This document shows positions 12,333-50,020 of a DNA stretch of 64,000 nucleotides, one piece after another; positions within the stretch are counted from its first letter, which is position 1; each line of letters opens with the position of its first letter. Both the position numbers and the translations under genes were made by a program. The DNA lies in the IMG/VR virus record IMGVR_UViG_3300035670_000059, positions 49,733-113,732 of that record. One strand, 5' to 3'. The notes beneath the pieces were generated by a model, which did not search any database, was not told the DNA's origin, and worked only from the letters and a program-made list of their open reading frames with translations. The DNA is from a virus.

Positions 12333-14531
12333 ATGTTAATAAATTCACCAAATATATCAGGTTCGTTAACGGTAACAGGCAATACTGTTATAACGGGATC
12401 TTTAACTGTACTAGGCGGTATAAACGCAACCATTACAGGATCTGCTACAAGTGCCTCATACGTTGAGTATAGCAATGTAGCTAATAAACCTGCGTTAGTA
12501 TCAAGTTCGGCTCAAATTGTAGGATACAATATATTTGCTACTACTGGTTCAAACCAATTTAATGGGAGCCAAGCCATAACTGGTTCTTTGACTGTAACAG
12601 GACAAGTAGTTGCTCAAACCTTGAATGTACAACAGGTAACTTCTAGTATAGTATATTCTAGTGGAAGTAATATATTTGGAAATAGTTTAAGCAATACACA
12701 ACAGTTTACTGGAAGTGTGTCTGTAACTGGGAGTTTAACAGTGAATGGAACGTCTGCTGTAACAGGAACTGGAACAACTAACTACTTGCCAAAGTTTACA
12801 GGTGCAAGTACGATTGGAAATAGTACAATAACCGATAATGGAACGACTGTTAGTGTTTTAAATAGTGCTTATACTGACGTTTTAAGAGTTGGCTCTACAT
12901 CAAACTCGATTTATTTCTATCCAGATGGAGGCTCAGTTAACATAATGACTGGTACAGGATTTTCAGGTACTGGAATAACGTTTGCTAGTGGTTCTAATTA
13001 CTTAGACTTTAATACTAACTCGCTAACAAGAATGCGCATCACCTCAGGTGGTAATATTGGTATAGGTACAACTAGCCCAATAGGGCCTTTAGATATAGCT
13101 GTTCCCGCAACTGGTTCCGCAATTGCTGCAACAACTTCTCAACAAGCATATAATTTTTCAAGATTTAGAATAAAACATTATACAGATTCAAATCTTGGAT
13201 TATCTATAGGATATGCAGGTGCTAACTTTACATACATCCAAGCTTGCTATAATGAAGGTAGTGTAGCACCCCTATTAATAAATCCTTTTGGAGGTAATGT
13301 AAGCATAGGCACGGCTAGTCCTTCAGCAACTCTTCATGTAGTTAGAGCAAATGATGGAGGCTCAGGAACACCTGGAGTGATTTTATCTACAGCTAATGGA
13401 GCAAATGATATTGTAAGATTCCAAGATGGAACTACTACTGTTGCTGTAGTAAAAAATAGTGGTAATATTGGTGTAGGAGTTGCTAGTCCAACTGGGAGCT
13501 TACAAGTAAGCAATGGAACACTTGGTCTTAATTTACAAGCTCATGTTGTAAATATTACTGGTAATAATTATTCAAGTGCAACTATTGGTATATATGATGC
13601 AGCCTCATTAGCTGCAAATACTGGTGGTGGAATTAATTTTGGTGCATTTTATACTTCTACACAATTCACAGAATTTGCATATATAAGAACAAATAAAGAT
13701 ACTGCTACATCTGGGGAATATGGGGGTTCATTAATATTTGCAACAAGACCAAATGGTGGGAGTGTAACTGAACGCATGCGCATCACCTCAGTCGGCAACG
13801 TGCTGATTGGGACAACAACAGATAATGGGGTAGGTAAATTACAAGTAAGTGGTAGAACATTTTTAGATAATGGTACTGGCAACGCTTTATCTATTGATAC
13901 AACTGTAGCAGATACTACTACAAGAGATGCTATTTATTTAGTTGAAAATGACGGTCAAGCAACAGGACGTCAAGCTATTTCTTGGTATAATGAAAACCAA
14001 ACCTACTATAAAGCAAGACTGTGGACTCAAGTAGGATCTAGTTATAACGCTACAGTATTTGGGATTGATGCAGCTGATGATACTAGGAGTGTAGATACTA
14101 GATTGGCAATTAGAAACGGTTATGTTTTTATGCCATCTTTAACTACAGGGACAGGTATTGATGATTTAGGATGGTGGTCGAGTTCAGGTACTACTTGGGG
14201 TTTTAATGGAATGTTGATGCGCATATCTTCATCAGCACGATACAAAAAGAATATTAGAGATTTAGAACTAGATACTTCAAAAATATTTGATTTAAGAACT
14301 ATCTCCTTTGAAAATAATGAACTTACTGCAACAGACGGTATTACAAGTTTTGGACTACTTGCTGAAGACGTAGCCGAAAAAATACCAATGCTAGCTACAT
14401 ATAATGAAGCTGGGCAGCCTGAAGGAGTTCAATACAAAATGTTAGCAGTTCTTTTGCTTGAAGAAATGAAAAAAATAAAAGCAGAAAACGACAACCTAAA
14501 ATCCAGACTAGAGATTTTAGAACAATCTTAA
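12333..14531 (+). CDS. Tail fibre with C-terminal S74 intramolecular chaperone
   Basis: GNIGIGT repeats; SSARYKKNI..GLLAEDV; terminal coiled coil. Confidence 0.85.
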   Translation: MLINSPNISGSLTVTGNTVITGSLTVLGGINATITGSATSASYVEYSNVANKPALVSSSAQIVGYNIFATTGSNQFNGSQAITGSLTVTGQVVAQTLNVQQVTSSIVYSSGSNIFGNSLSNTQQFTGSVSVTGSLTVNGTSAVTGTGTTNYLPKFTGASTIGNSTITDNGTTVSVLNSAYTDVLRVGSTSNSIYFYPDGGSVNIMTGTGFSGTGITFASGSNYLDFNTNSLTRMRITSGGNIGIGTTSPIGPLDIAVPATGSAIAATTSQQAYNFSRFRIKHYTDSNLGLSIGYAGANFTYIQACYNEGSVAPLLINPFGGNVSIGTASPSATLHVVRANDGGSGTPGVILSTANGANDIVRFQDGTTTVAVVKNSGNIGVGVASPTGSLQVSNGTLGLNLQAHVVNITGNNYSSATIGIYDAASLAANTGGGINFGAFYTSTQFTEFAYIRTNKDTATSGEYGGSLIFATRPNGGSVTERMRITSVGNVLIGTTTDNGVGKLQVSGRTFLDNGTGNALSIDTTVADTTTRDAIYLVENDGQATGRQAISWYNENQTYYKARLWTQVGSSYNATVFGIDAADDTRSVDTRLAIRNGYVFMPSLTTGTGIDDLGWWSSSGTTWGFNGMLMRISSSARYKKNIRDLELDTSKIFDLRTISFENNELTATDGITSFGLLAEDVAEKIPMLATYNEAGQPEGVQYKMLAVLLLEEMKKIKAENDNLKSRLEILEQS
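12534..12750 (+). repeat. Shared ~70-codon fibre core block (also ~16271-16450, 18157-18370, 19981-20195, 22197-22410)
   Basis: FATTGSNQFNGSQ.TGSLTVTGQVVAQTLNVQQVTSSIVYSSGSN.FGNS..NTQQFTGS is near-identical in five genes. Confidence 0.95.
13032..13047 (+). repeat. 16-mer ATGCG(C/T)ATCACCTCAG, 8 copies (13032, 13776, 17264, 20734, 21031, 22926, 23295, 23529)
   Basis: Read directly; encodes MRITS at fibre module junctions. Confidence 0.95.
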
Positions 14532-14568
14532 AAATATTTATAAACATAAAACACAAACACACAACACT

Positions 14569-14913
14569 ATGGCACTAACTTACAATTGGGTAGTATCTTC
14601 AATGGAAGAATATCCCACCACAGGCAGCTTAACCGATGTAGTATTTAACGTACATTGGAGAAGAAATGCAACAGAAACAGTAGATGATAAGCAATACTAT
14701 GCGGACATATACGGTTCACTTTCCGTACCTGCTCCATCTCCAGAAGACTTTACCCCGTACGAAGATCTCACATTCGAGCAAGTATGTGGATGGTTGGAAG
14801 CAGGAATGGATGTTGAGGCTTTAAACACAAATCTAGCTGCTCAAATTGAAAGACAAATCAACCCACCAGTAGTATCTTTACCATTGCCTTGGGTTTCTGG
14901 AAGCGTTATCTAA
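14569..14913 (+). CDS. Tail-fibre-associated small protein (paralog of 21569)
   Basis: YNW.V..ME..P..GSLTDVV..VHWRR..FTPYEDLT..V.GW..LPLPW pattern shared with 21569. Confidence 0.65.
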   Translation: MALTYNWVVSSMEEYPTTGSLTDVVFNVHWRRNATETVDDKQYYADIYGSLSVPAPSPEDFTPYEDLTFEQVCGWLEAGMDVEALNTNLAAQIERQINPPVVSLPLPWVSGSVI

Positions 14914-14924
14914 ACTATTAAAAC

Positions 14925-15098
14925 ATGCAATACTACGTTTTAAAGCAATTCCTACCCGGTACACAGATATGGGTATGGAAATTGAACGAGGAAGATACAG
15001 GATATGTCTTTGACACCGAACAAGAAGCCGAAGATATGTGTATTACTTTAAAGGAGCAAGACCCGTCTCGCGACTATAAGGTATCTACATCCATCTAA
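14925..15098 (+). CDS. 57-aa hypothetical protein (not in ORF track)
   Basis: MQYYVLKQFLPGTQIWVWKLNEEDTG...VSTSI*; A-rich leader; fills the intergenic gap. Confidence 0.65.
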   Translation: MQYYVLKQFLPGTQIWVWKLNEEDTGYVFDTEQEAEDMCITLKEQDPSRDYKVSTSI

Positions 15099-15160
15099 AC
15101 ACTATATATTTATCACAAATAGGTTGTGTTCCTTTTGGACAGTGAAAAAAGGCATATAAT

Positions 15161-17908
15161 ATGGCAAACGAATTTATAGCAAGAAAGGGTATTATATCCC
15201 TTGATGGTGCTCAAGTAACCGGCTCTTTATCCGTAACCGGCAACATTTCAGCCTCAATCTTTACAGGCTCATTTGTAGGAGATGGTTCCCAATTAAGTGG
15301 AATAGAAGGATTTCCGTTCACAGGCTCTGCAGGCATAACAGGCTCACTAACAGTAGTGGGCCCCGTTAATGCTACCACATTTACAGGAGACGGTTCCCAA
15401 CTTACAGGTATAGAAGGATTTCCATTTACAGGCTCCGCAGACATAACAGGCTCGCTTACAGTAGTAGGACCAGTTAACGCTACTTCTTTTACAGGTTCGC
15501 TACAAGGAACAGCAACATCTGCTTCCTATATCCAACTTGCAAATATAGATGGATTTACCGCATATTCCTCTTCGGTCAACACTGCTATTGACAGCGTGTT
15601 GGATGCAACAACTCCGCTAACTGCCACGGTAAATACCGGAAGTTCTCCATTTACCTTAACGAGCCAAAGCATTGTAGTAGCCGATAGTACAAATGGAAAC
15701 TTAACTATCAACCTACCAGACTTAAACACTATAGTTGGAACGCCAAACCAAAAACCAATTGTAGTATATAAAAACGACTATTCGCAAAACGTAATATACG
15801 TTAATCCTAGTGGTTCCCAACTAGTAAATGGGGCAAGCCAAGATATAATCGTAAGTATACAACTTGCGGTAATTTACAATCCAACAAGTGCGGGATGGGT
15901 AACGGAAGGTACTTCGGCCCAAAGTTTAGCGGAACTAGAACTATTTTTTCTTCCGTTAACAGAAACGGGTTCGCTTGCAACAACGGGTTCAAATGTATTT
16001 ATTGGAAACCAAACCATAACCGGTTCTTTAACAGTAACCGGAGGTATAAACGCAACCATAACAGGTTCAGCTGCTTCAGCTTCCTATGTAGAATATGCTA
16101 ACGTGGCAAATAAGCCTACGTTGGTATCAGGATCTGCTCAAATATCGTTTAACGGTATAACAGACAAACCAACACTTGTATCTGGTTCTTCTCAAGTAAG
16201 CTATACAGGATTATCCGATATACCCGCTAGTATAGTGTCTAGCTCAACTCAAATCACAGGATACAATATATTTGCTACTACGGGTTCTAACCAGTTCAAT
16301 GGTAGCCAAGCTATAACTGGCTCACTTACTGTAACTGGTCAAGTTGTAGCTCAAACTTTAAACGTACAACAGGTAACTTCTAGTATTGTGTATTCAAGCG
16401 GGTCCAATGTGTTTGGAAACAGTTTATCTAACACTCAACAATTTACTGGTTCTTTACAGGTAAGTGGTTCATCACATAATATATTAGGAAATGTTGGTAT
16501 AGGTCCTACTGGAACCCCAGTATCCGAACTACAAGTTGGTAAATCAAGTGATGTAACCATTGCAATGTCCAATTCAAGTTCTGTTACAAGCGGTAATAGA
16601 GGGAGCTTAGCATGGTACAATTCAAGCAACTCAACTGTTGCTAATATTAAAGCAACTGCAGTTACCGACAACGTAGGCACACAATTAGAGTTTTACACAA
16701 GACCGGCTGCTGGTTCTCTTACTCAAGTGTTAACCATATCCTCCACAGGTGCAGCTACCTTTAATACAACTACCGATACCACATCAATTTCAATGTTAAG
16801 CACTGGGACTGCAAGTGGATTAAGACTACAAAATACAGGTGGCACTGCATCAGATTGGATAATTCAAAGTGATGGGGGTGCAGTAGCTGGGCAAGCAGCA
16901 TTAAGATTTTATTCAATTACAGCAACTGCTTATAGAATGTCTATTGATGGATCTGGTAATGTTGGTATAGGCACTACTAGTCCAGGATATGATGGTGCCG
17001 GATATGGAGCAGTAAGATATGTAACTATAAACAATGCTTCAGGTACAGGTAGTAACTTAGAACTAGCAACAGGCACTACTGCCAATGATGGCTATATAGG
17101 TGCAATTGATTTTATTAACACTTCTAATACAGGTGCACCAGGTGCAGGCAGATATGGAATTGCTTCAATTAGAGCATATACAACTAATGCAAGTGCAACA
17201 AATACAGGAGGAGGATATTTAACATTCAACACTAAAGCAGATGGTGGAAGCGGAGCAGAAAGAATGCGCATCACCTCAGGAGGGGAAGTATCAATCACTG
17301 GAATTAATTTAACAGTTGGTACTGGCGGAGGTGCAGGTACACTTAATTTAGACCAATCTACAGTTAGAAGATGGAAACTAAGTTCAGGTGGAATTACTTC
17401 GGGGGTTTTTAGTATAATTAATGGGAGTGACGATTCTCCTGCATTAAATATTAGTAGCTCAAATATAGTATCTTTCTATATTGGGGGTGGTTTTGCAAAC
17501 CAAACAACTTTAGATGCTAATACTCGTTTTCAAGGTCCAAATATTTCTGTAGCAGCAGCTAAAGCATATGCTTGGAATACCTATTCAGACCAAAGAATTA
17601 AGGAAAATATAAATCCTTTACCTTATGGCTTAAACGAAATACTACAATTAAATCCTGTTTCATATAATCAGCACGATTCAGAAGTAATTGATAGTGAAAT
17701 AGTATTAAAAGAAACATATAAATCAACAATTGGATTAATTGCACAGGAAGTTAATGATTTTATACCTGAAGCTGTAGGTATTGGAAATGATACTGAACTT
17801 TGGGGATTAGATTATAACAAAATAGTCCCAGTCCTTGTCAAAGCCATCCAAGAACAACAAGCCCAAATCGAATCCCTTAAAGCCGAAATACAAACACTAA
17901 AACAATGA
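15161..17908 (+). CDS. Long tail fibre with S74 chaperone
   Basis: Fibre repeats; YSDQRIKENI..GLIAQEV..LDYNKIVPVLVKAIQE. Confidence 0.88.
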   Translation: MANEFIARKGIISLDGAQVTGSLSVTGNISASIFTGSFVGDGSQLSGIEGFPFTGSAGITGSLTVVGPVNATTFTGDGSQLTGIEGFPFTGSADITGSLTVVGPVNATSFTGSLQGTATSASYIQLANIDGFTAYSSSVNTAIDSVLDATTPLTATVNTGSSPFTLTSQSIVVADSTNGNLTINLPDLNTIVGTPNQKPIVVYKNDYSQNVIYVNPSGSQLVNGASQDIIVSIQLAVIYNPTSAGWVTEGTSAQSLAELELFFLPLTETGSLATTGSNVFIGNQTITGSLTVTGGINATITGSAASASYVEYANVANKPTLVSGSAQISFNGITDKPTLVSGSSQVSYTGLSDIPASIVSSSTQITGYNIFATTGSNQFNGSQAITGSLTVTGQVVAQTLNVQQVTSSIVYSSGSNVFGNSLSNTQQFTGSLQVSGSSHNILGNVGIGPTGTPVSELQVGKSSDVTIAMSNSSSVTSGNRGSLAWYNSSNSTVANIKATAVTDNVGTQLEFYTRPAAGSLTQVLTISSTGAATFNTTTDTTSISMLSTGTASGLRLQNTGGTASDWIIQSDGGAVAGQAALRFYSITATAYRMSIDGSGNVGIGTTSPGYDGAGYGAVRYVTINNASGTGSNLELATGTTANDGYIGAIDFINTSNTGAPGAGRYGIASIRAYTTNASATNTGGGYLTFNTKADGGSGAERMRITSGGEVSITGINLTVGTGGGAGTLNLDQSTVRRWKLSSGGITSGVFSIINGSDDSPALNISSSNIVSFYIGGGFANQTTLDANTRFQGPNISVAAAKAYAWNTYSDQRIKENINPLPYGLNEILQLNPVSYNQHDSEVIDSEIVLKETYKSTIGLIAQEVNDFIPEAVGIGNDTELWGLDYNKIVPVLVKAIQEQQAQIESLKAEIQTLKQ
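15278..15493 (+). repeat. 108-bp in-frame tandem duplication
   Basis: GDGSQL.GIEGFPFTGSA.ITGSLTVVGPVNAT.FT twice (15278 and 15386). Confidence 0.9.
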
Positions 17909-19614
17909 GCTATTTAAAAGACAGAGAAATATGGTTAAGTAGTGTACCAACCGGTAATCCACCAGCAGGGTACGTTTGGGTATTTATCCAAAACGGTGTT
18001 TTCGTTGTACGAGACAGCAGTGGTGTAGATAAAATCATGGCTACTACCACGGGCACTGTTACGAACGCAACAAGTGCATCCTACGTTGAATATAGTAACG
18101 TAGCAAATAAACCCGCGTTGATTTCCAGTTCAGCTCAAATTGTAGGATACAATGTGTTTGCAACTACGGGTTCAAATCAATTTAATGGGAGCCAAGCTGT
18201 TACCGGGTCTTTGACTGTGACGGGACAGGTAGTTGCACAGACTTTAAACGTGCAACAAGTAACTTCTAGTATAGTATATTCAAGTGGGTCCAATGTGTTT
18301 GGAAACAGTTTATCCAATACACAACAGTTTACAGGTAGTATGTCTGTAACTGGAAGTATGACAGTGAATGGAGCAGGTACATTTGCAAGTAGTATAACGG
18401 CTGGAAACAATTTATTAATAAATAATCTTGCAGCATCCAAAAAAGGATACACATACCAAAGCCCAGCATCTAACTGGGGTCCACAAGTTTCGGGCTTATA
18501 TTTTACTCCAAATAATGCTGTTGATGCACAAACAACATTTACACTTGAGTTGTGGAATGGTGTCGGTTCAATAATAACACCTTTAACAATAACAGATACA
18601 GGCACATCTACCTTTACAGGTACAAGTGCTTCTCCTGTTTTAACATTATCAAATAGTACCGGGGGTACTAAAGCAGATTTTACAATTACAGAAAATACAG
18701 GCTTAATTGTTAATTCATACGAAAGCACATCAGCAAGAAGTATTGATTTTAGAGTTGCTGGAACATCTGCTTTATTAATAGCATCCTCAGGCGCAGCTAC
18801 CTTTTCGAGTAGTGTAACGGCTACAAGTTTAATTACGGGAACAGCTGGTGGTTCTTCTATTAACATTACAACAAATGGTAATAACGGAACATCTGGAAGT
18901 CCATTACAAACTAATCTTAATTTTTACGGATTCAACTCAAATTTAAATGGTCAAATACGAGTAGATGATATTGCGGGTACTGCACAAATTGGTACAATGA
19001 AATTTTACACTTGGAACTCAGGCCAAGTATTAGCACTAACATTAACTCAAACAGGTGCAGCTGCATTTTCAAGCACTATTGACTTAAGTGGTGCTATTAC
19101 TAATTTTGGAACAGGTACTGGAACATATACTAGATCTGTTTGGTATAATGATCCTACTAATCAAATCCTATTTGAAAATGCTAGACAAACTGATGATGCC
19201 AGCGGTACTGGTAGAACAGTATACTTTACTTGGAGAGGAGGACCTAGTGTAGGTGGAGGTGTTCAACTACAACATGGAACAAACGCTTGGGCAGCATACA
19301 CTTCAGATGCTCGACTTAAAACCAAAGTAGCTGATGTTGAAAATGGTATAGAGGTTGTAATGAGATTAAACCCAATTAAATTTAAATGGAGTAGAGAACT
19401 AGAAAATAGTAGAACAGTAACAGGATTTACAGCTCAAAACGTTGAAGAAGCAATACCTGATGCGGTATTTAATTCATGGCAGGATGAAGAATTAGGTGAT
19501 GTAAAATCATACTACTCAGACTATTTAATTCCTTATCTAGTAAAAGCTATCCAAGAACTCAAATCCGAAAACGACAACCTAAAATCCAGACTAGAAGTTC
19601 TAGAACAATCCTAA
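17905..19614 (+). CDS. Tail fibre with S74 chaperone
   Basis: TSDARLKTKV..GFTAQNVE..LIPYLVKAIQE. Confidence 0.88.
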   Translation: MSYLKDREIWLSSVPTGNPPAGYVWVFIQNGVFVVRDSSGVDKIMATTTGTVTNATSASYVEYSNVANKPALISSSAQIVGYNVFATTGSNQFNGSQAVTGSLTVTGQVVAQTLNVQQVTSSIVYSSGSNVFGNSLSNTQQFTGSMSVTGSMTVNGAGTFASSITAGNNLLINNLAASKKGYTYQSPASNWGPQVSGLYFTPNNAVDAQTTFTLELWNGVGSIITPLTITDTGTSTFTGTSASPVLTLSNSTGGTKADFTITENTGLIVNSYESTSARSIDFRVAGTSALLIASSGAATFSSSVTATSLITGTAGGSSINITTNGNNGTSGSPLQTNLNFYGFNSNLNGQIRVDDIAGTAQIGTMKFYTWNSGQVLALTLTQTGAAAFSSTIDLSGAITNFGTGTGTYTRSVWYNDPTNQILFENARQTDDASGTGRTVYFTWRGGPSVGGGVQLQHGTNAWAAYTSDARLKTKVADVENGIEVVMRLNPIKFKWSRELENSRTVTGFTAQNVEEAIPDAVFNSWQDEELGDVKSYYSDYLIPYLVKAIQELKSENDNLKSRLEVLEQS

Positions 19615-19650
19615 AAATATTTATACGAAGAATACAGTAAACAAGACCTA

Positions 19651-21567
19651 ATGATACAAGATAAAATATTCTTTGACGAAAAAGACCCAACCGGTGTTTC
19701 CTACAACACCCCATTCACCGTTTACGGAAGCTACGAGGGTAGATTGTGGAGTAAAACCCCAAGTGGTACTATAAAATACTACACACAAAACAGTGATTTA
19801 TCTGTTTATGCTACAACAGGTTCAAATTCCTTTAACGGAAACCAAACCGTAACTGGTTCTTTAACAGTAACAGGAGGAATAACGGGATCCGCTACAACTG
19901 CTTCTTACGTTGAATATACTAGTGTAGCAAATAAACCTTCACTTGTATCAAGTTCGGCTCAAATTGTTGGGTATAACGTATTTGCTACTACCGGTTCCAA
20001 TCAATTTAACGGAAGTCAAGCTGTAACAGGGTCTTTAACGGTAACAGGGCAGGTAGTTGCTCAAACATTGAATGTACAACAGGTAACCTCTAGCATTGTG
20101 TATTCTAGTGGAAGCAATATATTTGGAAATAGTGTATCCAACACACAACAGTTTACTGGTAGTGTGTCTGTGACTGGGAGTTTGACAGTGAATGGAGCAG
20201 GTACATTTTCTAGCGCAGTTACATCTAATTCCTTTATCTCTGATGGAACTGCAAATGAAGGCGTAATACGAATTGAACGTGACACTGTAAGTACTAACAC
20301 AGTTATTGGAGCTTTAAACTTTACAAACAATAATGGCTCTACAGTTTATGGTAGAGTTCGTGGGGGTAGAAATTCTGCTGGAGACGGATATGCAAGTTTA
20401 GGTACAGGTGTTGGGGATAATTTATATGCAATAGAAGGTGGTAGTGTGGGTATAGGCACGGCTAGTCCTGAAACATTAAGCAACAATACTACTTTGCAAA
20501 TTGATGGGACAAACCATTCATTTGTAAGAACTGGAAATTCAAGTTATGGGGGATATTTTGCTACAATCCCAACTGCTGAAGTTTTATGCATCGCCAATGT
20601 TCGAAACCCAGTTACAGGTACTTACAACAATACTGGAAAAGCCGCTAGCGGGATAAATTTATTTTCTGAAAGTTCAAATGGTTATATTACTTTTCTTACT
20701 ACTGCAACAAATAATAGTGGTCCAAGCGAACGCATGCGCATCACCTCAGGTGGCAATGTTGGTATAGGAATTACAAACCCAACAGCACAACTATCATTAA
20801 AAAACCAAATTTCAAATGGTTCAACCCCTGTTTCATCTTATGCTGCAACAAATGGGGTTGATGGGCAAAATTTCTTTAATGGATATTATGCTGTAAATAG
20901 TGATGGTTTAGGACCATATCCAAGATATTTTGATATTGTTTCAACTGGCTCTCCTGATGGTTCAAACGGTGGTAGTAACATTAGATTCTTTACAAATCCA
21001 ATTACAAATAATTCACCAGCAGTAGAACGCATGCGTATCACCTCAGGTGGTGTTGTTAGAATAACCAGCTTTACAACTAATGGTTTAGTTGGCACAGATT
21101 CATCAGGAAATTTAGGTGTTGTAATTTCAGAATACACTGAAATTGCCACAGGAACAATAACTTACTCAATGAACTCTGGTTCTCCTTGGGCAATTAATAA
21201 TTCATTCCCTGCTACTATCAGAAACTATGAGGATGATGGGATGGCAGGTTCAGGAGGTGTAGATACTAACCTTAACTTAGGTAGAGGAGTAACATTTGAT
21301 TTAGGTTCAGCAAAAACAGTGAGAAAAATAGTTGAAAGAGGGTATCCTACAAAAAATCTAAACCAAATTATTGTTCAATATTCAACAGATAATTCAAATT
21401 GGACTGACATATACGTTTATAATCATGTTTATGGTAATACACAGAAGGATATGGAATTTAATCCAACAGGAGCAATTTCTGCTAGATATTGGAGATGGTT
21501 TATACATAGCTGGTCAGAAAGAGAAGTACAAAACTACTATACATACGAATCAATAATTTATACATAA
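19651..21567 (+). CDS. Tail fibre ending in a discoidin/F5-8 type C-like carbohydrate-binding domain
   Basis: Shared core block; C-term VTFDLGSAKTV..QYSTDNSNWT..ARYWR; no S74 domain. Confidence 0.75.
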   Translation: MIQDKIFFDEKDPTGVSYNTPFTVYGSYEGRLWSKTPSGTIKYYTQNSDLSVYATTGSNSFNGNQTVTGSLTVTGGITGSATTASYVEYTSVANKPSLVSSSAQIVGYNVFATTGSNQFNGSQAVTGSLTVTGQVVAQTLNVQQVTSSIVYSSGSNIFGNSVSNTQQFTGSVSVTGSLTVNGAGTFSSAVTSNSFISDGTANEGVIRIERDTVSTNTVIGALNFTNNNGSTVYGRVRGGRNSAGDGYASLGTGVGDNLYAIEGGSVGIGTASPETLSNNTTLQIDGTNHSFVRTGNSSYGGYFATIPTAEVLCIANVRNPVTGTYNNTGKAASGINLFSESSNGYITFLTTATNNSGPSERMRITSGGNVGIGITNPTAQLSLKNQISNGSTPVSSYAATNGVDGQNFFNGYYAVNSDGLGPYPRYFDIVSTGSPDGSNGGSNIRFFTNPITNNSPAVERMRITSGGVVRITSFTTNGLVGTDSSGNLGVVISEYTEIATGTITYSMNSGSPWAINNSFPATIRNYEDDGMAGSGGVDTNLNLGRGVTFDLGSAKTVRKIVERGYPTKNLNQIIVQYSTDNSNWTDIYVYNHVYGNTQKDMEFNPTGAISARYWRWFIHSWSEREVQNYYTYESIIYT

Positions 21568-21568
21568 T

Positions 21569-21880
21569 ATGAGAACTACTTATTGGAAAATAAACAAACT
21601 TGAAGTAATACCCGAAGAAGGTAGCTTAACAGAAGTAATACAATATGCATATTATCAAAGAATTGTTGAAGAAGGACAGTATTCTACTTTTATAGAAGGT
21701 AAGATGTTGTTCCCTACTCCCGAAAGTTCAAATTTTATACCTTATGCAGATATTACTGAAGCTGATATTATATCTTGGATTTTACCTAATATGAATTTAG
21801 AAGAAGTTGATTTATTTTTAAATCAAAAATTAGATAGCATTATATCAGAAAGTGCTTATTTTCCCCCTTTACCATTTTAA
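21569..21880 (+). CDS. Tail-fibre-associated small protein (paralog of 14569)
   Basis: YWKI..LEV.P..GSLTEVI..FIPYADIT..IISW..PLPF. Confidence 0.65.
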   Translation: MRTTYWKINKLEVIPEEGSLTEVIQYAYYQRIVEEGQYSTFIEGKMLFPTPESSNFIPYADITEADIISWILPNMNLEEVDLFLNQKLDSIISESAYFPPLPF

Positions 21881-21929
21881 AATTTTTATATTTATAACAC
21901 GAATACCCACCTACCCAATACATTAACAA

Positions 21930-24083
21930 ATGCTAATACATAACGCAGAAGTAACCGGATCGTTAAACATAAACAATGTTCCATTTAATAGCGGCTCTTT
22001 TAGCGGCTCGTTTCAAGGAGATGGTTCTCAATTATCCGGTGTAACAGGGGCAACAACTGCCTCGTACGTTGAATATAGCAATGTTGGAAATAAGCCCGCG
22101 TTAGTATCGGGCTCCTCTCAAATTATATATAGTGGATTATCTGGTATCCCGAGTGGGATAGTATCAAGTTCCGCTCAAATTGAAGGGTATGGTATATTTG
22201 CCACTACGGGTTCAAATTCATTTAACGGTTCTCAAACTGTAACTGGTTCTTTGACCGTGACCGGTCAAGTTGTTGCACAAACTTTGAATGTACAACAGGT
22301 AACTTCTAGTATAGTATATTCAAGTGGAAGTAACGTGTTTGGAAATAGTTTAGCGAATACACAACAGTTTACTGGAAGTGTATCTGTGACAGGGAGTTTA
22401 GCGGTAAATGGAGCTGGTACATTTGCAAGTAGTGTTGGGATTAATGGAAGTCCTGGAACTTCTTTTCCATTAGAAGCATACATAAACAATTCAACTGCTT
22501 ACTCTTCAACATCAAGAGGAAACGTATTTCGTGTTTACAATAGCAATACGGGCGCAAATATTTTTGCAGGAATTGAATTAGGGGGTGCAGGAAGTGCTAA
22601 TGATGGATTAGCAGGATTGAATGCAATAGTAACTGGAAATGGCAGTGCTGCCTTAACTTTTTACACAAGAGATTCCAATACATTTGCCGAACGCATACGT
22701 CTCACTTCCGGAGGTAATGTCGGTATAGGTACTAATAGTCCTGTTGGAGGAGGTGGTGCCTCGGATAGAACATTGGGTATAAATGCCGCAACAGGTGCTG
22801 CTACATTTGTAACAGGAATGATAAACGGTACACGATATAGTACCTTATTTACTGCTGCCGATAGTGTTGTTTTAGAAACTAATGCAGCTATACCTTTAGC
22901 ATTTAATACCAACTCAACCGAACGCATGCGTATCACCTCAGGTGGGGATGTTTTTATAAACAATTCATCTGGAGTAACATTAAATAGTTTAACAAATAAA
23001 CTAAGCGTTTCATCTACTACTTATAATTTATTTGATATTTCAAGATTTTCCGATAATGCTTTTGGTCCAAACTTTTACCTTGTTAAATCAAGAAATGGTA
23101 GTATTGGTGGAAATACAATTGTTGCAAATGGAGATAATTTAGGTAATATAAATTGGGTAGGAGCAAACGGAACAGGATTTACTGATGCTGCAAGTATTAA
23201 AGCAGAGGTTGATGGTGGCCCTGGAGCAAGTGATATGCCAGGTAGATTAGTATTTTCTACTACAGCTGATGGTGCTACTAGTGTTACCGAACGCATGCGC
23301 ATCACCTCAGGTGGTAATATTGGTATAAGTACAAATTCTCCTTTGGGCAGTTCTGTTGAAAGAACAATTCATTTAAGTGATGGAGGTGGAGGTTATGCTA
23401 CGGTATATGTTACTAATAGCGCAAATACTGTTAGGTCTATTTTTGGCATGCAAAGTGCTCAAAATTTAGTAGTAGTAGGGAGTCAAACAAATACTCCTGT
23501 TGCTATATACACTAACGATACCGAACGAATGCGCATCACCTCAGGTGGTAATGTTGGTATAGGCACTAATAACCCAGGGAAAAGACTAGATGTTAGGGCT
23601 AGTGCTGCAGGAGAAGTCGCAATAATTTCAAATGAAAGAAATAGCACCGGAGATTATGCCCTTGTTACTTCTTTAGGGTCAAATTGCAATAATACTTCTG
23701 CATATCATTACATAGCCGCTACAGGTGGAGCAGATCGATTATATATTTATGGAAATGGAAATGTAGTAAATATAAATGGTTCTTATGGTACTCTATCAGA
23801 TATTTCATTAAAGGAAAATATTGTAGATGCTACACCAAAACTTGCTGATTTGCTACAATTAAAAGTTAGAAACTTTAATTTAATTGGTAGTGAGGAAAAA
23901 CAAATTGGTTTTATAGCCCAAGAATTTGAGAAAATATTTCCTAAAATGGTAGATATTGATGGTAAAAATGGGATGAAAACTATTAAAACATCTGTTTTAG
24001 TACCTATGTTAGTTAAAGCCATCCAAGAACTCTCAGCAAAAGTAGAAACATTAGAAGCTGAAATACAAACACTAAAACAATAA
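21930..24083 (+). CDS. Tail fibre with S74 chaperone
   Basis: LSDISLKENI..IGFIAQEFE..LVPMLVKAIQE. Confidence 0.88.
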   Translation: MLIHNAEVTGSLNINNVPFNSGSFSGSFQGDGSQLSGVTGATTASYVEYSNVGNKPALVSGSSQIIYSGLSGIPSGIVSSSAQIEGYGIFATTGSNSFNGSQTVTGSLTVTGQVVAQTLNVQQVTSSIVYSSGSNVFGNSLANTQQFTGSVSVTGSLAVNGAGTFASSVGINGSPGTSFPLEAYINNSTAYSSTSRGNVFRVYNSNTGANIFAGIELGGAGSANDGLAGLNAIVTGNGSAALTFYTRDSNTFAERIRLTSGGNVGIGTNSPVGGGGASDRTLGINAATGAATFVTGMINGTRYSTLFTAADSVVLETNAAIPLAFNTNSTERMRITSGGDVFINNSSGVTLNSLTNKLSVSSTTYNLFDISRFSDNAFGPNFYLVKSRNGSIGGNTIVANGDNLGNINWVGANGTGFTDAASIKAEVDGGPGASDMPGRLVFSTTADGATSVTERMRITSGGNIGISTNSPLGSSVERTIHLSDGGGGYATVYVTNSANTVRSIFGMQSAQNLVVVGSQTNTPVAIYTNDTERMRITSGGNVGIGTNNPGKRLDVRASAAGEVAIISNERNSTGDYALVTSLGSNCNNTSAYHYIAATGGADRLYIYGNGNVVNINGSYGTLSDISLKENIVDATPKLADLLQLKVRNFNLIGSEEKQIGFIAQEFEKIFPKMVDIDGKNGMKTIKTSVLVPMLVKAIQELSAKVETLEAEIQTLKQ

Positions 24084-24175
24084 CCCAATATTTATAACCA
24101 TACAAGTTTAAAATTATTTGGAAATCCAAACTATATTTCATATATTAACCAACAAAACTAAATTTTAAATCGTTT

Positions 24176-24634
24176 ATGCAAAACACAACGTTACAATTAG
24201 GACAAATTTTACAATTAGAAACCGAAGTAAATGGAGTAGTAAACACTCAAACTGGCGAAGTTGTTTCTAAAGGCCTCATGAAGGAAGTCCTCAAATTCAA
24301 AACCAAATACTGGCTAATGCAATTGTCCGATGATTTGGTAGAAGAAAAAAAGAAAATCGAAGCTGTTCGAGACCAACTGGTTAAAGAATTAGGTCAAGAA
24401 GATGAAACGGGAGCAATTTCCCTACCCGTGTTCATCAATGAAGTACAGGATGAAGAAGGTAAACTAGTTTCTAGAGAAGTTAACCCAAAGTTCCTCGACT
24501 TTCAAGAAAAATTCAATGAGCTATTAGCCGAAACTAAAGAACTTTCCCACGGTAAATTTTTACTAGAGGATTTCGAACTTGTAGAATCTGCTGAAGTATA
24601 TCCTGTATTTTTCAAGCTAATTTCTGCTGAATAA
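24176..24634 (+). CDS. Hypothetical helical protein
   Basis: Intact ORF preceded by a TTTG-N20-TATATTAA promoter. Confidence 0.6.
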   Translation: MQNTTLQLGQILQLETEVNGVVNTQTGEVVSKGLMKEVLKFKTKYWLMQLSDDLVEEKKKIEAVRDQLVKELGQEDETGAISLPVFINEVQDEEGKLVSREVNPKFLDFQEKFNELLAETKELSHGKFLLEDFELVESAEVYPVFFKLISAE

Positions 24635-24635
24635 C

Positions 24636-24887
24636 ATGGAAAAAATCCAATTAGCTCCTGAGGAGCTATCTAAGTTGCAAGATTTAAACAATAAAGTAGC
24701 AGATATTGTAGCATCTCTAGGTCAAATAGAAATACAAACATCTCTTCTGCAAGAAAACAAAAAATCTCTATTGGCTAGTTTTTCCCAAATCCAACAGGAT
24801 CAAGATCAACTAGCCCAAGAGCTAACCCAAAAATATGGGGATGGTACAATAGACATGACTTCCGGAGAATTTACTAAGGCAGGATAG
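24636..24887 (+). CDS. Small coiled-coil protein
   Basis: Q/L heptads, C-term KYGDGTID..GEF. Confidence 0.6.
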   Translation: MEKIQLAPEELSKLQDLNNKVADIVASLGQIEIQTSLLQENKKSLLASFSQIQQDQDQLAQELTQKYGDGTIDMTSGEFTKAG

Positions 24888-41651: not shown

Positions 41652-42512
41652 ATGGATTTATCACTATTGAAAAAGAAGTTAGATGGTCTTCAACAGAAAA
41701 CATCACCTAAGGAAAAAACCGATTACTCTAAAATTTATTGGTCCCCTAAGGTAGGAAAACAACAAATCCGTATTGTTCCTTCTGCTTTTAATAAAGCAAA
41801 CCCGTTCACGGAACTTAAAATTTATTACGGTATTACAAACAAAGTTATGATTTCTCCTTTGAATTTTGGAGAAAAGGATCCGATTGCTCTATTTGCTTCA
41901 AAACTTAGAGGTGAATACAACAAGGAAAATTTCGTACTAGCTAAAAAACTTGACCCTAAAGTTCGTATTTTTGCTCCCGTAATTGTACGTGGTGAAGAAG
42001 ATATGGGTGTTAGATTGTGGCAATTTGGCAAGCAAGTGTACGAGGAATTGATCAGCCTAGCTGTTGATGAAGAAATTGGTGATTATACCGATATTGTAAA
42101 TGGTAGAGACATTACTGTTGATACTGTAGGACCGGAATCAACTGGTACCCCATACAATAAATCTTCAGTACGTGTTAAGTTGAAAACCTCCCCATTGAGT
42201 GAAAATAAAGCTCAAGTAGAAAGTTGGTTGGCCGAACAACCTAACCCAACAGATTCATTTAAGAAATATACGTTTGATGAAATGAAATCTGCTCTGGAAA
42301 AATGGTTGTCTCCTGGAGATGAGGCTGAAGAAGGTGATATAATTGACGAGGCTAATGATGGCTTTGAAGATGAAGCTCCGGTTAGCAAGTTACCTTGGGA
42401 AGAAGAACTCGAAACACAACCTAAAAAACAAGCCAATTATAGCTTGAACACTACTAAAGTAAAACAATCTAAAGGAGATCAATTCAACGCCTTGTTTGAG
42501 GACGAAGATTAA
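41652..42512 (+). CDS. Single-stranded DNA-binding protein (gp32-like)
   Basis: IRIVP, DPI, GVRLWQFGK, DYTD..GRDI motifs; acidic C-tail FEDED. Confidence 0.8.
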   Translation: MDLSLLKKKLDGLQQKTSPKEKTDYSKIYWSPKVGKQQIRIVPSAFNKANPFTELKIYYGITNKVMISPLNFGEKDPIALFASKLRGEYNKENFVLAKKLDPKVRIFAPVIVRGEEDMGVRLWQFGKQVYEELISLAVDEEIGDYTDIVNGRDITVDTVGPESTGTPYNKSSVRVKLKTSPLSENKAQVESWLAEQPNPTDSFKKYTFDEMKSALEKWLSPGDEAEEGDIIDEANDGFEDEAPVSKLPWEEELETQPKKQANYSLNTTKVKQSKGDQFNALFEDED

Positions 42513-42517
42513 CATTT

Positions 42518-43600
42518 ATGGCTAAAAAAAGAAACACATCACTTTCCGCGGCAGTGTCCGCGGAAATTAAATCTAACTTTGATCTAAGCAAATTTAAAAC
42601 CAAGAAAGGCTTAGATAAAAACGTTAAATTTAAAGACCAACAGTGGATTCCTTTATCTCCTGCTTTTCAAGAAGTTAGCTCTATCCCTGGAATCCCTATG
42701 GGTCATATTGTTATGCTCCGAGGACATTCAGATACAGGTAAAACAACTGCAATGATTGAAGCAGCGGTATCAGCCCAAACCAATGGTATTTTACCAGTAT
42801 TCATCATTACAGAAATGAAATGGAACTGGGACCATGCAGTGCAAATGGGATTAGACATTAATATTACTCGAGATCCAGAAACAAATGAAGTTATTGACTA
42901 TGAAGGTAATTTTATTTATGTTGATCGAGAAACATTAAATTCCATTGAAGATGTTGCCGCATTTATCATGGATTTGTTAGATGAGCAGAAAAAAGGTAAT
43001 CTACCGTATGATCTGTTGTTTTTGTGGGACAGTATTGGTTCTATTCCTTGTGATCTATCAATTCGTTCTAACAAAAATAATAACGAATGGAATGCAGGTG
43101 CTATGTCAACTCAATTTGGCAATAACGTAAACCAAAAGATTGTAATGTCTCGTAAAGAATCATCACCTTACACTAACACACTTGTGGTAGTAAATAAGGT
43201 ATGGACTTTAAAACCCGAATCACCAATGGGTCAGCCCAAACTGATGAATAAGGGTGGGTATGCAATGTGGTACGATGCAACATTTGTAATTACATTTGGA
43301 AATGTTATGTCAGCCGGTACTAACAAAATCAAAGCCATTAAAAATGGTAAGGAAGTAGAGTTTGCTAAACGTACAAATCTTCAAATCGATAAAAACCACG
43401 TTAATGGTATTACTACCAGAGGTAAGATTATCATGACACCACATGGTTTCATTATGGATGATGAAAAAGCTATCAAAGAATATAAAAATATGTACGCCGA
43501 AGAATGGGCTCGTATTTTAGGTGGTGGCGATTTCTCTATAATTGAAGAAAGCGAAGAAGCAACAATTACTGTATCTCAGTTCGCACACGAACCCGAATAA
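42518..43600 (+). CDS. recA: RecA/UvsX-like recombinase
   Basis: GIPMGHI, Walker A GHSDTGKT, FLWDSIGS, KGG..WY, IDKNH. Confidence 0.85.
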   Translation: MAKKRNTSLSAAVSAEIKSNFDLSKFKTKKGLDKNVKFKDQQWIPLSPAFQEVSSIPGIPMGHIVMLRGHSDTGKTTAMIEAAVSAQTNGILPVFIITEMKWNWDHAVQMGLDINITRDPETNEVIDYEGNFIYVDRETLNSIEDVAAFIMDLLDEQKKGNLPYDLLFLWDSIGSIPCDLSIRSNKNNNEWNAGAMSTQFGNNVNQKIVMSRKESSPYTNTLVVVNKVWTLKPESPMGQPKLMNKGGYAMWYDATFVITFGNVMSAGTNKIKAIKNGKEVEFAKRTNLQIDKNHVNGITTRGKIIMTPHGFIMDDEKAIKEYKNMYAEEWARILGGGDFSIIEESEEATITVSQFAHEPE

Positions 43601-43601
43601 C

Positions 43602-44645
43602 ATGAAACACAAAGAACTATTTAAACTTCTTGATGATATCAAGGAGGAGGGGAATGAATCCTTACCTAAAAGACACGATAGAGTTTTATTGATAGATGGA
43701 TTAAATCTATTCTTTAGAAACTTTGCAATGTTAAACATGGTAAACCCCGATGGGATTCACGTTGGCGGATTAGGTGGGTTCCTCCGTTCACTAGGTTCTT
43801 TAGTTAAACAAATTAATCCCACCGCTGTTTATGTTGTATTCGATGGGGCAGGGTCTTCTAGCAATAGAAAGAACCTTGTCCCCGAGTACAAATCTGAACG
43901 ACACACTCAAAGGGTAACTAACTGGGAAATATTTGATAATCTGGATGACGAACACGATTCTAAAATTGATCAAATTGTACGTTTAATCCAGTATTTAAAG
44001 CAATTACCTGTTAAAACCCTAGCCATTGATAAGGTAGAAGCAGATGATATAATTGCTGTGTTATCTATGGATTTGGTTAAAAAATACAATTCCACAGTAT
44101 TCATAGTTTCCTCAGACAAGGATTTTATTCAACTAGTAAATGATAAAGTTGTAGTATATCGTCCAATGGAAAAGGAATATTACAGCCCTAAAACAGTAGT
44201 AGAAAAATTTGATGTACTAGCTGAAAATTTTATTCTTTATAAAACACTACTTGGGGATGCTTCCGATAAAGTGCAAGGAGTTAAAGGATTGGGTGATAAA
44301 GGTATATTTAAAAAATTCCCTGAGCTAAAAACTCAACCACTTACTTTAGATGATATATTTGAAATCTCGGCTAGGAAATTTAAAGACCATGTAGTATATT
44401 CAAGAATATTACAAGATCAAAGACGATTAGAGACCAATTATAAGATTATGGATTTGTCAAAACCAATGGTAGATGAACGAGACATAGCTTATATTAACAA
44501 TATGGTTGAATCTGATCTACCTGAACTTAATTCTAAGAACTTTACTATAATGTACGAGGAAGATAAGTTGGGTGGTATGATTAAAAACGTAGATTATTGG
44601 TTGAAGGATAATTTCTTACATTTTAAAGGTTACAAAAATAAATGA
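43602..44645 (+). CDS. 5'-3' exonuclease/flap endonuclease (T4 RNase H-like)
   Basis: LIDGLNLFFR, VFDG, YKSER, EADDII, SSDKDF, LGDASD..GVKGLG; ATG 43602 follows recA stop. Confidence 0.92.
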   Translation: MKHKELFKLLDDIKEEGNESLPKRHDRVLLIDGLNLFFRNFAMLNMVNPDGIHVGGLGGFLRSLGSLVKQINPTAVYVVFDGAGSSSNRKNLVPEYKSERHTQRVTNWEIFDNLDDEHDSKIDQIVRLIQYLKQLPVKTLAIDKVEADDIIAVLSMDLVKKYNSTVFIVSSDKDFIQLVNDKVVVYRPMEKEYYSPKTVVEKFDVLAENFILYKTLLGDASDKVQGVKGLGDKGIFKKFPELKTQPLTLDDIFEISARKFKDHVVYSRILQDQRRLETNYKIMDLSKPMVDERDIAYINNMVESDLPELNSKNFTIMYEEDKLGGMIKNVDYWLKDNFLHFKGYKNK

Positions 44646-49546: not shown

Positions 49547-50020
49547 ATGAAATTATTATATTTGTTTTTTGCTTTATTTTTAAGCATGAACCTTTATGGT
49601 CAAGAAACTATACGAATTGAGGGAGTAGAAAATAAAATTATACTTGGTCCTTTAGCTAACAACCGAGATTTAGCTTTTGGGGTTAAAAACATACTAGAAG
49701 AAACAATCCAAGATAAAGGATGGGATCTAGATGAAGCATCTTCTCGTAGTATTAAAGTAGAAATAGTATATTTTGATGTATTAAAAAATAATGTACAGTT
49801 AGGTGCATTTGGTAAAAATTTAAGCATAACTGTAGTTATAGCTAAAGCTTATTTAATTGAAAATGGTAAAATAATAAAAACAACTGAGGCAAAAGGTCAA
49901 GCCAAAGATATCTCTACTGCAACTTTAATCATAGATCAGGGAGGTCAGTTTTCACAAGCAGGAGTTTCAACAGCACTTAAAAAGGTTTGTGAACAACTTA
50001 TCGATAACTTACTTCTATGA
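49547..50020 (+). CDS. Exported protein, CsgG/TolB-N-like alpha/beta fold
   Basis: Sec signal; C-term F.QAGVSTALKKVCE parallels FNQSSIGTSTKKALE of the 53517 ORF. Confidence 0.55.
   Translation: MKLLYLFFALFLSMNLYGQETIRIEGVENKIILGPLANNRDLAFGVKNILEETIQDKGWDLDEASSRSIKVEIVYFDVLKNNVQLGAFGKNLSITVVIAKAYLIENGKIIKTTEAKGQAKDISTATLIIDQGGQFSQAGVSTALKKVCEQLIDNLLL

Follow-up and report, generated by a model that had tools for sequence, protein, structure and literature searches.

The tail fibre genes of an uncultured aquatic phage, known from IMG/VR record IMGVR_UViG_3300035670_000059 (113.7 kb, 33% G+C, estimated to be ~70% complete), carry a repeated 16-nucleotide word, ATGCGYATCACCTCAG, which encodes the start of a conserved protein motif. 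We analysed a stretch of 64,000 nucleotides (nt) from this record (positions 49,733 to 113,732), referred to here as the window and numbered from its first letter. The silent sites of the motif were found to be alike within genomes and free between them, and breakpoints between related contigs concentrated inside the motif. In our judgement the likely explanation is general recombination or gene conversion through short homology, acting at an island of DNA that is constrained by the peptide it encodes.

Copies of the 16-mer in the fibre genes

The 16-mer occurs in eight exact copies, all direct and on the + strand, and none was found in 100 shuffles of the sequence. As the original prediction had located them, the copies lie in fibre genes 1, 2, 4 and 5 (Table 1), in every case in frame as M-R-I-T-S. 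Orphan copies, for which a search of the rest of the genome had been proposed, were absent from the 113.7-kb record even when up to 3 mismatches were allowed. Only two spellings, one base apart, are in use: the Arg codon is CGC in six copies and CGT in the other two, and all eight read ATC-ACC-TCA for Ile-Thr-Ser, as had been reported. The genome uses these codons rarely (CGC 4%, ATC 15%, ACC 14%, TCA 23%), and the chance of finding ATC-ACC-TCA in all eight copies, were they independent, is ~3e-19. Other identical peptide 5-mers of the five fibre genes served as an internal control: among 941 pairs of them, the DNA was identical in 8.3%; in the same genes the peptide GSLTV has 13 copies in 12 spellings, against two spellings for the eight copies of MRITS. 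These data bear out the claim that the silent sites are conserved beyond the needs of the peptide. A longer 26-mer, said to surround the word often, was exact in only two copies and one mismatch away in three more. The invariant residues Gly+6 and Ile+10 of the motif were not locked to one codon in the window, and two degenerate copies of the motif (at 16931 and 22689) have drifted at amino acid and silent positions alike.

The 16-mer encodes the beginning of a longer stretch, ERMRITSGG followed by GNVGIGT..P...L, which follows a hydrophobic-x-F-x-T strand and is repeated along the fibres at intervals of 78-248 residues. The stretches between copies had been described as unrelated; this holds for their DNA, yet they resemble diverged units of one repeat, each with the hydrophobic-x-F-x-T strand and with the motif at its end. 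The same repeat family was found in fibres of cultured Synechococcus, Prochlorococcus, Pelagibacter and Roseobacter phages. Fibre 5 also matched the solved Bdellovibrio MAT fibre Bd1334 (8oml; E 4.6e-5), and the matched stretches include a near-identical copy of the motif. The domains of the MAT fibres are trimeric beta-helices, intertwined and ~90-130 residues long, and are bounded by conserved capping loops (Caulton 2024, PMC10769870; 8oml, 8on4, 8ond); they are related to the S74 fibres of phages T5 and K1F, and evolutionary "tip swapping" has been proposed for them (PMC10769870). By sequence, the window motif (V-G-I-G-T-x-x-P-x-x-x-L) is one residue longer than the published capping-loop consensus (V-G-G/N-pi-x-x-P-x-x-x-L). 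The second half, GNVGIGT..P, is present in 11 copies within 13049-23578, several of them without the ERMRITS half, and its G-I-G is mostly spelt GGT-ATA-GG.

Spelling of the motif within and between genomes

A scan of IMG/VR with a degenerate pattern provided an unbiased sample of 136 instances of the same nine-residue peptide. Codons varied freely between contigs, the motif Ile being ATT in 60 instances, ATC in 40 and ATA in 36. The exact 17-mer of the window was found in 38 contigs, and in all but one of these the peptide context was the same. The window word is one spelling among many and is not universal. Each genome has its own spelling of the peptide, and the fixed recognition site that had been proposed is not supported by this comparison.

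Within a contig the picture was different. The 15-nt word was identical in 54% of copy pairs within contigs but in 4.5% of pairs between contigs, although the flanking DNA was equally dissimilar in both (identity 0.42/0.44 within and 0.39/0.42 between). Given the codon usage of each contig, 1.03 identical pairs would be expected among the 72 within-contig pairs, and 39 were observed; identity extended to copies in different open reading frames (ORFs), at 9 of 15 pairs. An independent sample, drawn with the variant ERMRID(S/T), behaved in the same way, with 51% of pairs identical within contigs and 13% between (90 pairs) and with flanks that were again equally dissimilar within and between. Silent-site identity peaked from codon -2 to codon +5, at 0.62-0.90 within genomes compared with 0.25-0.38 between them (0.72 between genomes at Glu -2, a position dominated by GAA), and lay near the between-genome baseline from about codon +6 outward. 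This profile suggests a homogenized tract of ~21-24 nt.

The locking was also specific to position. Codon identity between copies was 0.83 when Arg-1 and Arg+1 were each matched to the same position and 0.21 when they were crossed; for Ile+2 and Ile+10 the values were 0.83 and 0.13. One amino acid at two motif positions of one genome thus often takes different codons, each locked across copies. In the cultured cyanophage S-TIM54 (OP053362.1, 64065-83369; contig L240), Arg-Ile is spelt CGT-ATA in five of five motif copies even though the motif peptides differ (ERLRITS, EKIRIDS and others), which indicates that codon locking is present in the genome of a cultured isolate too. These observations establish genome-specific locking of silent sites at the level of codon, genome and position.

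Breakpoints and shared cassettes

The fetched contigs were compared all against all, and we recorded the internal ends of matches of at least 88% identity that fell inside motif-bearing ORFs. There were 157 such ends. Twenty-two lay at -7 to +27 nt of the motif Met codon, with none in the surrounding region from -120 to +150; a uniform spread would place ~7.6 in the 68-nt test window (p=7e-6). In about 12 non-redundant pairs of contigs, one side of the motif was 90-99% identical and the other side unrelated. The original prediction had named two findings that together would speak against it, namely free variation of the motif codons in relatives and a lack of breakpoint enrichment at the motif; the codons do vary freely, and the breakpoints are enriched.

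The view of the motif as an in-frame crossover point is also strengthened by two modules of the window that recur elsewhere, with similarity that ends at motif copies. The cassette 20734-21031 was found in contigs L247, L248 and L249 at ~75% nt identity; similarity stopped at both motif copies, and the surroundings were unrelated. Around the cassette in L248 the motif peptide is the same but its spelling differs, which fits words that are set by the resident genome. The second module is shared with L244 (Table 1). In addition, the close relative L026 was 96% identical to the window as far as a GGSVGIGTASP copy that ends at 20471 and diverged completely beyond it.

Proposed short-homology recombination and its alternatives

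We propose that the near-invariant peptide makes its coding DNA a short homology island between otherwise unrelated modules, and that such islands would be paired by general homologous recombination, carried out by the UvsX-like recombinase, SSB and exonuclease of the phage and/or by the host RecA. The three phage genes are present in a row (Table 1). A crossover in the motif would preserve the reading frame across the joined modules and would fall at a seam that the structure tolerates; such exchange could involve different fibre genes as well as co-infecting phages. Gene conversion, through the repair of short heteroduplexes, would keep the copies in one genome alike over ~21-24 nt, and each incoming cassette, arriving through a crossover inside the motif, would help to do so. 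Every genome would in this manner come to have its own word, and copies that have lost their identity by drift, the ones at 16931 and 22689 for example, would no longer be converted and would decay.

Several points weigh against this proposal. Only 14% of the breakpoints in these ORFs lie at recognizable motif copies, and the modules of the window itself break at the GNVGIGT half or at the motif as a whole and not at the 16-mer itself. The cassettes held in common are only 75-81% identical, so that the exchanges are old, and crossover at the motif is read from the comparison of contigs. Copies in the window match one another exactly over short tracts, 16 nt at the median and 33 at most; efficient pairing of the RecA or UvsX type is commonly said to need about this length or more, and events are therefore probably rare per infection. 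The incompleteness of the record (~70%) leaves room for a specialized enzyme. Finally, selection for function among chimeras would likewise place the surviving breakpoints at structural seams.

A stronger claim would be that the word is a maintained "address" that fixes which phages and which fibre genes can swap modules, the words marking compatibility groups among phages that draw on one pool of cassettes. This is possible, but we doubt it; upkeep of such an address would call for second-order selection for evolvability or for a dedicated mechanism, e.g., template switching in recombination-dependent replication. If it were true, receptor-binding modules would be reshuffled frequently and combinatorially within natural populations.

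The chief alternative to short-homology recombination is illegitimate, homology-independent recombination followed by selection, in which breaks fall anywhere, only chimeras joined at a seam survive and the DNA word has no mechanistic role. Breakpoints would cluster at the structural seam in this case as well, and both the several breaks at the GNVGIGT half or its edge, outside the word, and the majority of breakpoints that lie away from recognizable motif copies are in its favour. However, it leaves unexplained why silent sites are locked within genomes position by position and against codon bias, and why the drifted copies have changed at silent and replacement sites jointly. We consider it unlikely.

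Still less probable is translational selection, by which the motif codons would be set for accuracy or for a folding pause and the word by the host tRNA pool. The rare C-ending codons of the window word could be read in this way, as could the tendency of the Arg after Met to avoid the commonest Arg codon across genomes (0.20, compared with 0.37 expected). The G+C content at third codon positions of the motif (GC3) likewise exceeded the usage of each contig in both samples and was about twice the expectation in the ERMRIDS set; this fits GC-biased conversion but could also reflect an origin in genomes of higher G+C. Across contigs, however, the motif Ile, Thr and Ser codons were about as common as expected, which leaves a general rare-codon pause unsupported, and sets of ATA/ACA/AGT as well as C-ending sets were used as words in contigs of similar G+C. 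A choice of optimal codons is ruled out by the position-specific locking, in which one genome holds the same amino acid to different codons at two motif positions, and selection on translation would also have to accommodate Gly+6 and Ile+10, which are invariant and are not locked in the window.

Recent common descent, in which young duplicates have flanks that diverged fast under positive selection and silent sites in the motif that have not yet changed, is very improbable. The units are indeed repeats of one structural type, and the five paralogous fibre genes have an N-proximal core of ~300 nt in common; this core is only 66-85% identical between them, and the genes are old paralogues. Flank identity within contigs equals that between contigs in both samples, and the silent sites of conserved residues that closely adjoin the tract are saturated, being already at the between-genome baseline, which rules out recent duplication.

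That the word is recognized by a site-specific recombinase, a nuclease or a guide, in a shufflon-like or homing-like system, is equally hard to credit: the sharp identity edges and overlapping dyads in the window and the incompleteness of the record speak for it, but words vary from genome to genome without conservation of the dyads, all copies are direct, and the genome has neither a further copy nor a complement of the word to serve as a guide. The original prediction had offered UvsX-driven microhomology or a site-specific enzyme as alternatives; a UvsX-like recombinase is present, and no match to Resolvase, Phage_integrase or RVT_1 was found in the ~70% complete record, so that readings based on a site-specific recombinase, an invertase or a diversity-generating retroelement (DGR) are ruled out to that extent. 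Shufflons and invertases (Rci, Gin/Cin/Pin) pair a recombinase gene with inverted sites, unlike the direct copies here, and the repeat families of the cluster comprise the motif copies and the paralogue cores, with no pair of template and variable repeats as in a DGR. The dyads are real, as had been noted, but they result from R-M-R-I being spelt CGC-ATG-CGC-AT and are absent from the words of other genomes. Folding z-scores of -1.07 to +0.76 give no signal of a hairpin or cruciform, a role that we reject, and the palindromes are incidental.

Comparison with known systems

The route had been put forward as distinct from DGRs and invertase shufflons. According to Trojet 2011 (PMC3157838), which cites Tetart 1996 and 1998, the distal fibre and adhesin genes of T-even phages exchange segments at the His boxes of gp37 and the glycine-rich motifs of gp38. 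As in that system, short conserved motifs in frame (here eight perfect and two degenerate copies) separate variable segments, and natural exchanges, there also laboratory ones, fall within or near the motif. The window motif contains neither a His box nor an oligoglycine run and so works alike without being the same motif. It also differs in being found in S74-type fibres of uncultured aquatic phages and in having its own silent-site spelling per genome over ~21-24 nt. The principle is thus known from T-even fibres, and the window is a new, quantified and well-supported case of it rather than a new mechanism. In the papers searched, we found no description of this motif at the DNA level and none of genome-specific locking of silent sites.

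The Bdellovibrio MAT fibres resemble those of the window in the near-identical motif within the Bd1334 match, and they share with other S74 trimeric beta-helix fibres, among them T5 pb1 and the K1F endosialidase, the C-terminal S74 domain, an intramolecular chaperone, that most fibres here possess. The published MAT loop consensus does not fit the window motif letter for letter, and the MAT work (PMC10769870) deals with protein structure in a predatory bacterium, not with conservation of DNA or with recombination joints. A further parallel, for which PMC3157838 cites Botstein 1980 and Arbiol 2010, is provided by the linkers of modular evolution and by the mobile regulatory cassettes of T4-type phages, since there too short homology between non-homologous modules guides exchange by general recombination; such linkers are mostly intergenic or regulatory, whereas the window motif lies in a coding repeat, in frame and many times per gene.

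In the fibres of Streptococcus thermophilus phages, collagen-like Gly-X-Y repeats flank the host-specificity region and have been proposed as recombination hot spots. Unlike these tandem repeats of low complexity, the window motif is a dispersed and unique structural motif. Tail fibres determine the hosts that a phage can infect, and exchange at the motif may have effects on host range. What is understood of the in-frame origin of new fibres from unrelated parts comes mostly from a few coliphages, and the present case concerns a very common fibre repeat of aquatic phages, which carries a short DNA island where modules were exchanged. Alike spelling within a genome would be a measurable footprint of ongoing recombination and a simple sequence signature by which fibre seams could be recognized in uncultured phages, and the motif copies could act as natural junction points for laboratory work on fibre modularity.

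The fibre cluster and its surroundings

The tail fibre label of the ORFs that bear the 16-mer comes from PHROGs, and most of these ORFs have a C-terminal Peptidase_S74 domain (Pfam). PF13884 scored above the cut-off in fibres 2, 3 and 5, scored below it in fibre 1 and was absent from fibre 4.

Table 1. Positions in the window of the fibre genes, motif copies, a shared module and the recombination genes
Feature	Positions	Strand	Remarks
Fibre 1	12333-14531	+	732 aa; weak C-terminal Peptidase_S74 match
Fibre 2	15161-17908	+	915 aa; Peptidase_S74
Fibre 3	17905-19614	+	569 aa; Peptidase_S74; N-proximal core in common with the others, without the 16-mer
Fibre 4	19651-21567	+	638 aa; F5/8 type C tip in place of S74
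Fibre 5	21930-24083	+	717 aa; Peptidase_S74; sequence match to solved Bdellovibrio MAT fibre 8oml
16-mer copy 1	13032-13047	+	Fibre 1, residue 234
16-mer copy 2	13776-13791	+	Fibre 1, residue 482
16-mer copy 3	17264-17279	+	Fibre 2, residue 702
16-mer copy 4	20734-20749	+	Fibre 4, residue 362; left edge of the cassette in common with L247, L248 and L249
16-mer copy 5	21031-21046	+	CGT variant; fibre 4, residue 461; right edge of the L247/L248/L249 cassette
16-mer copy 6	22926-22941	+	CGT variant; fibre 5, residue 333; 26-nt exact tract in common with copy 5
16-mer copy 7	23295-23310	+	Fibre 5, residue 456; 33-nt exact tract in common with copy 1
16-mer copy 8	23529-23544	+	Fibre 5, residue 534
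Degenerate motif copy YRMSIDGSG	16931-16957	+	Other codons; not homogenized
Degenerate motif copy ERIRLTSGG	22689-22715	+	Differs at 3 silent and 2 replacement positions
Second-half-only copy GGSVGIGTASP	20439-20471	+	96% identity to L026 collapses right after; matches to L012/L251, L250 and L252 end at 20459-20463
Module in common with L244	13059-13298	+	81% nt and 72% aa identity; motif to motif; unrelated context
SSB	41652-42512	+	General-recombination gene; first of three in a row
UvsX-like recombinase	42518-43600	+	General-recombination gene
Exonuclease	43602-44645	+	General-recombination gene

The tip of fibre 4 is an F5/8 type C, discoidin-like domain of the NedA-like galactose-binding kind and is an instance of a swapped tip. 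Directly after fibres 1 and 4 lie two paralogous small ORFs, at 14569-14913 and 21569-21880 (114 and 103 aa, both phrog_7802). Because they adjoin the two fibres that have no clear S74 domain, they may act as separate chaperones for fibre assembly. A tandem duplication of 108 nt, 81% identical, is present near the N-terminus of fibre 2, at 15270-15485. The 3' ends of the fibre genes (14461-14553, 17823-17906, 19526-19636 and 23998-24081) have patchy DNA identity of 67-81% to each other, and between 14461-14553 and 19544-19636 the identity continues beyond the stop codon, which suggests that exchange has taken place between the ends of paralogues too.

The nearest isolates by sheath protein were Flavobacterium myophages, at 51% identity. 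A megablast search with the whole fibre cluster gave no match among GenBank phages, and protein-guided searches with fibres 1 and 5 recovered few close relatives. The backbone relatives L158-L163, whose sheath proteins are 84-96% identical to that of the window, were 87-92% identical in DNA from ~24084-24639 onward and had no DNA in common with its fibre cluster. An ERMRITS-type motif was not found in the fetched parts of L158 and L159, which were unusable for fine mapping of breakpoints. The region 24042-24639 forms the right-hand edge of a hypervariable fibre region: nt identity of 87-92% resumes at 24042 in L026, at 24084 in L163, at 24143 in L160 and at 24633-24639 in L158, L159 and L161, and the entire cluster to the left of this edge is replaced in the backbone relatives.

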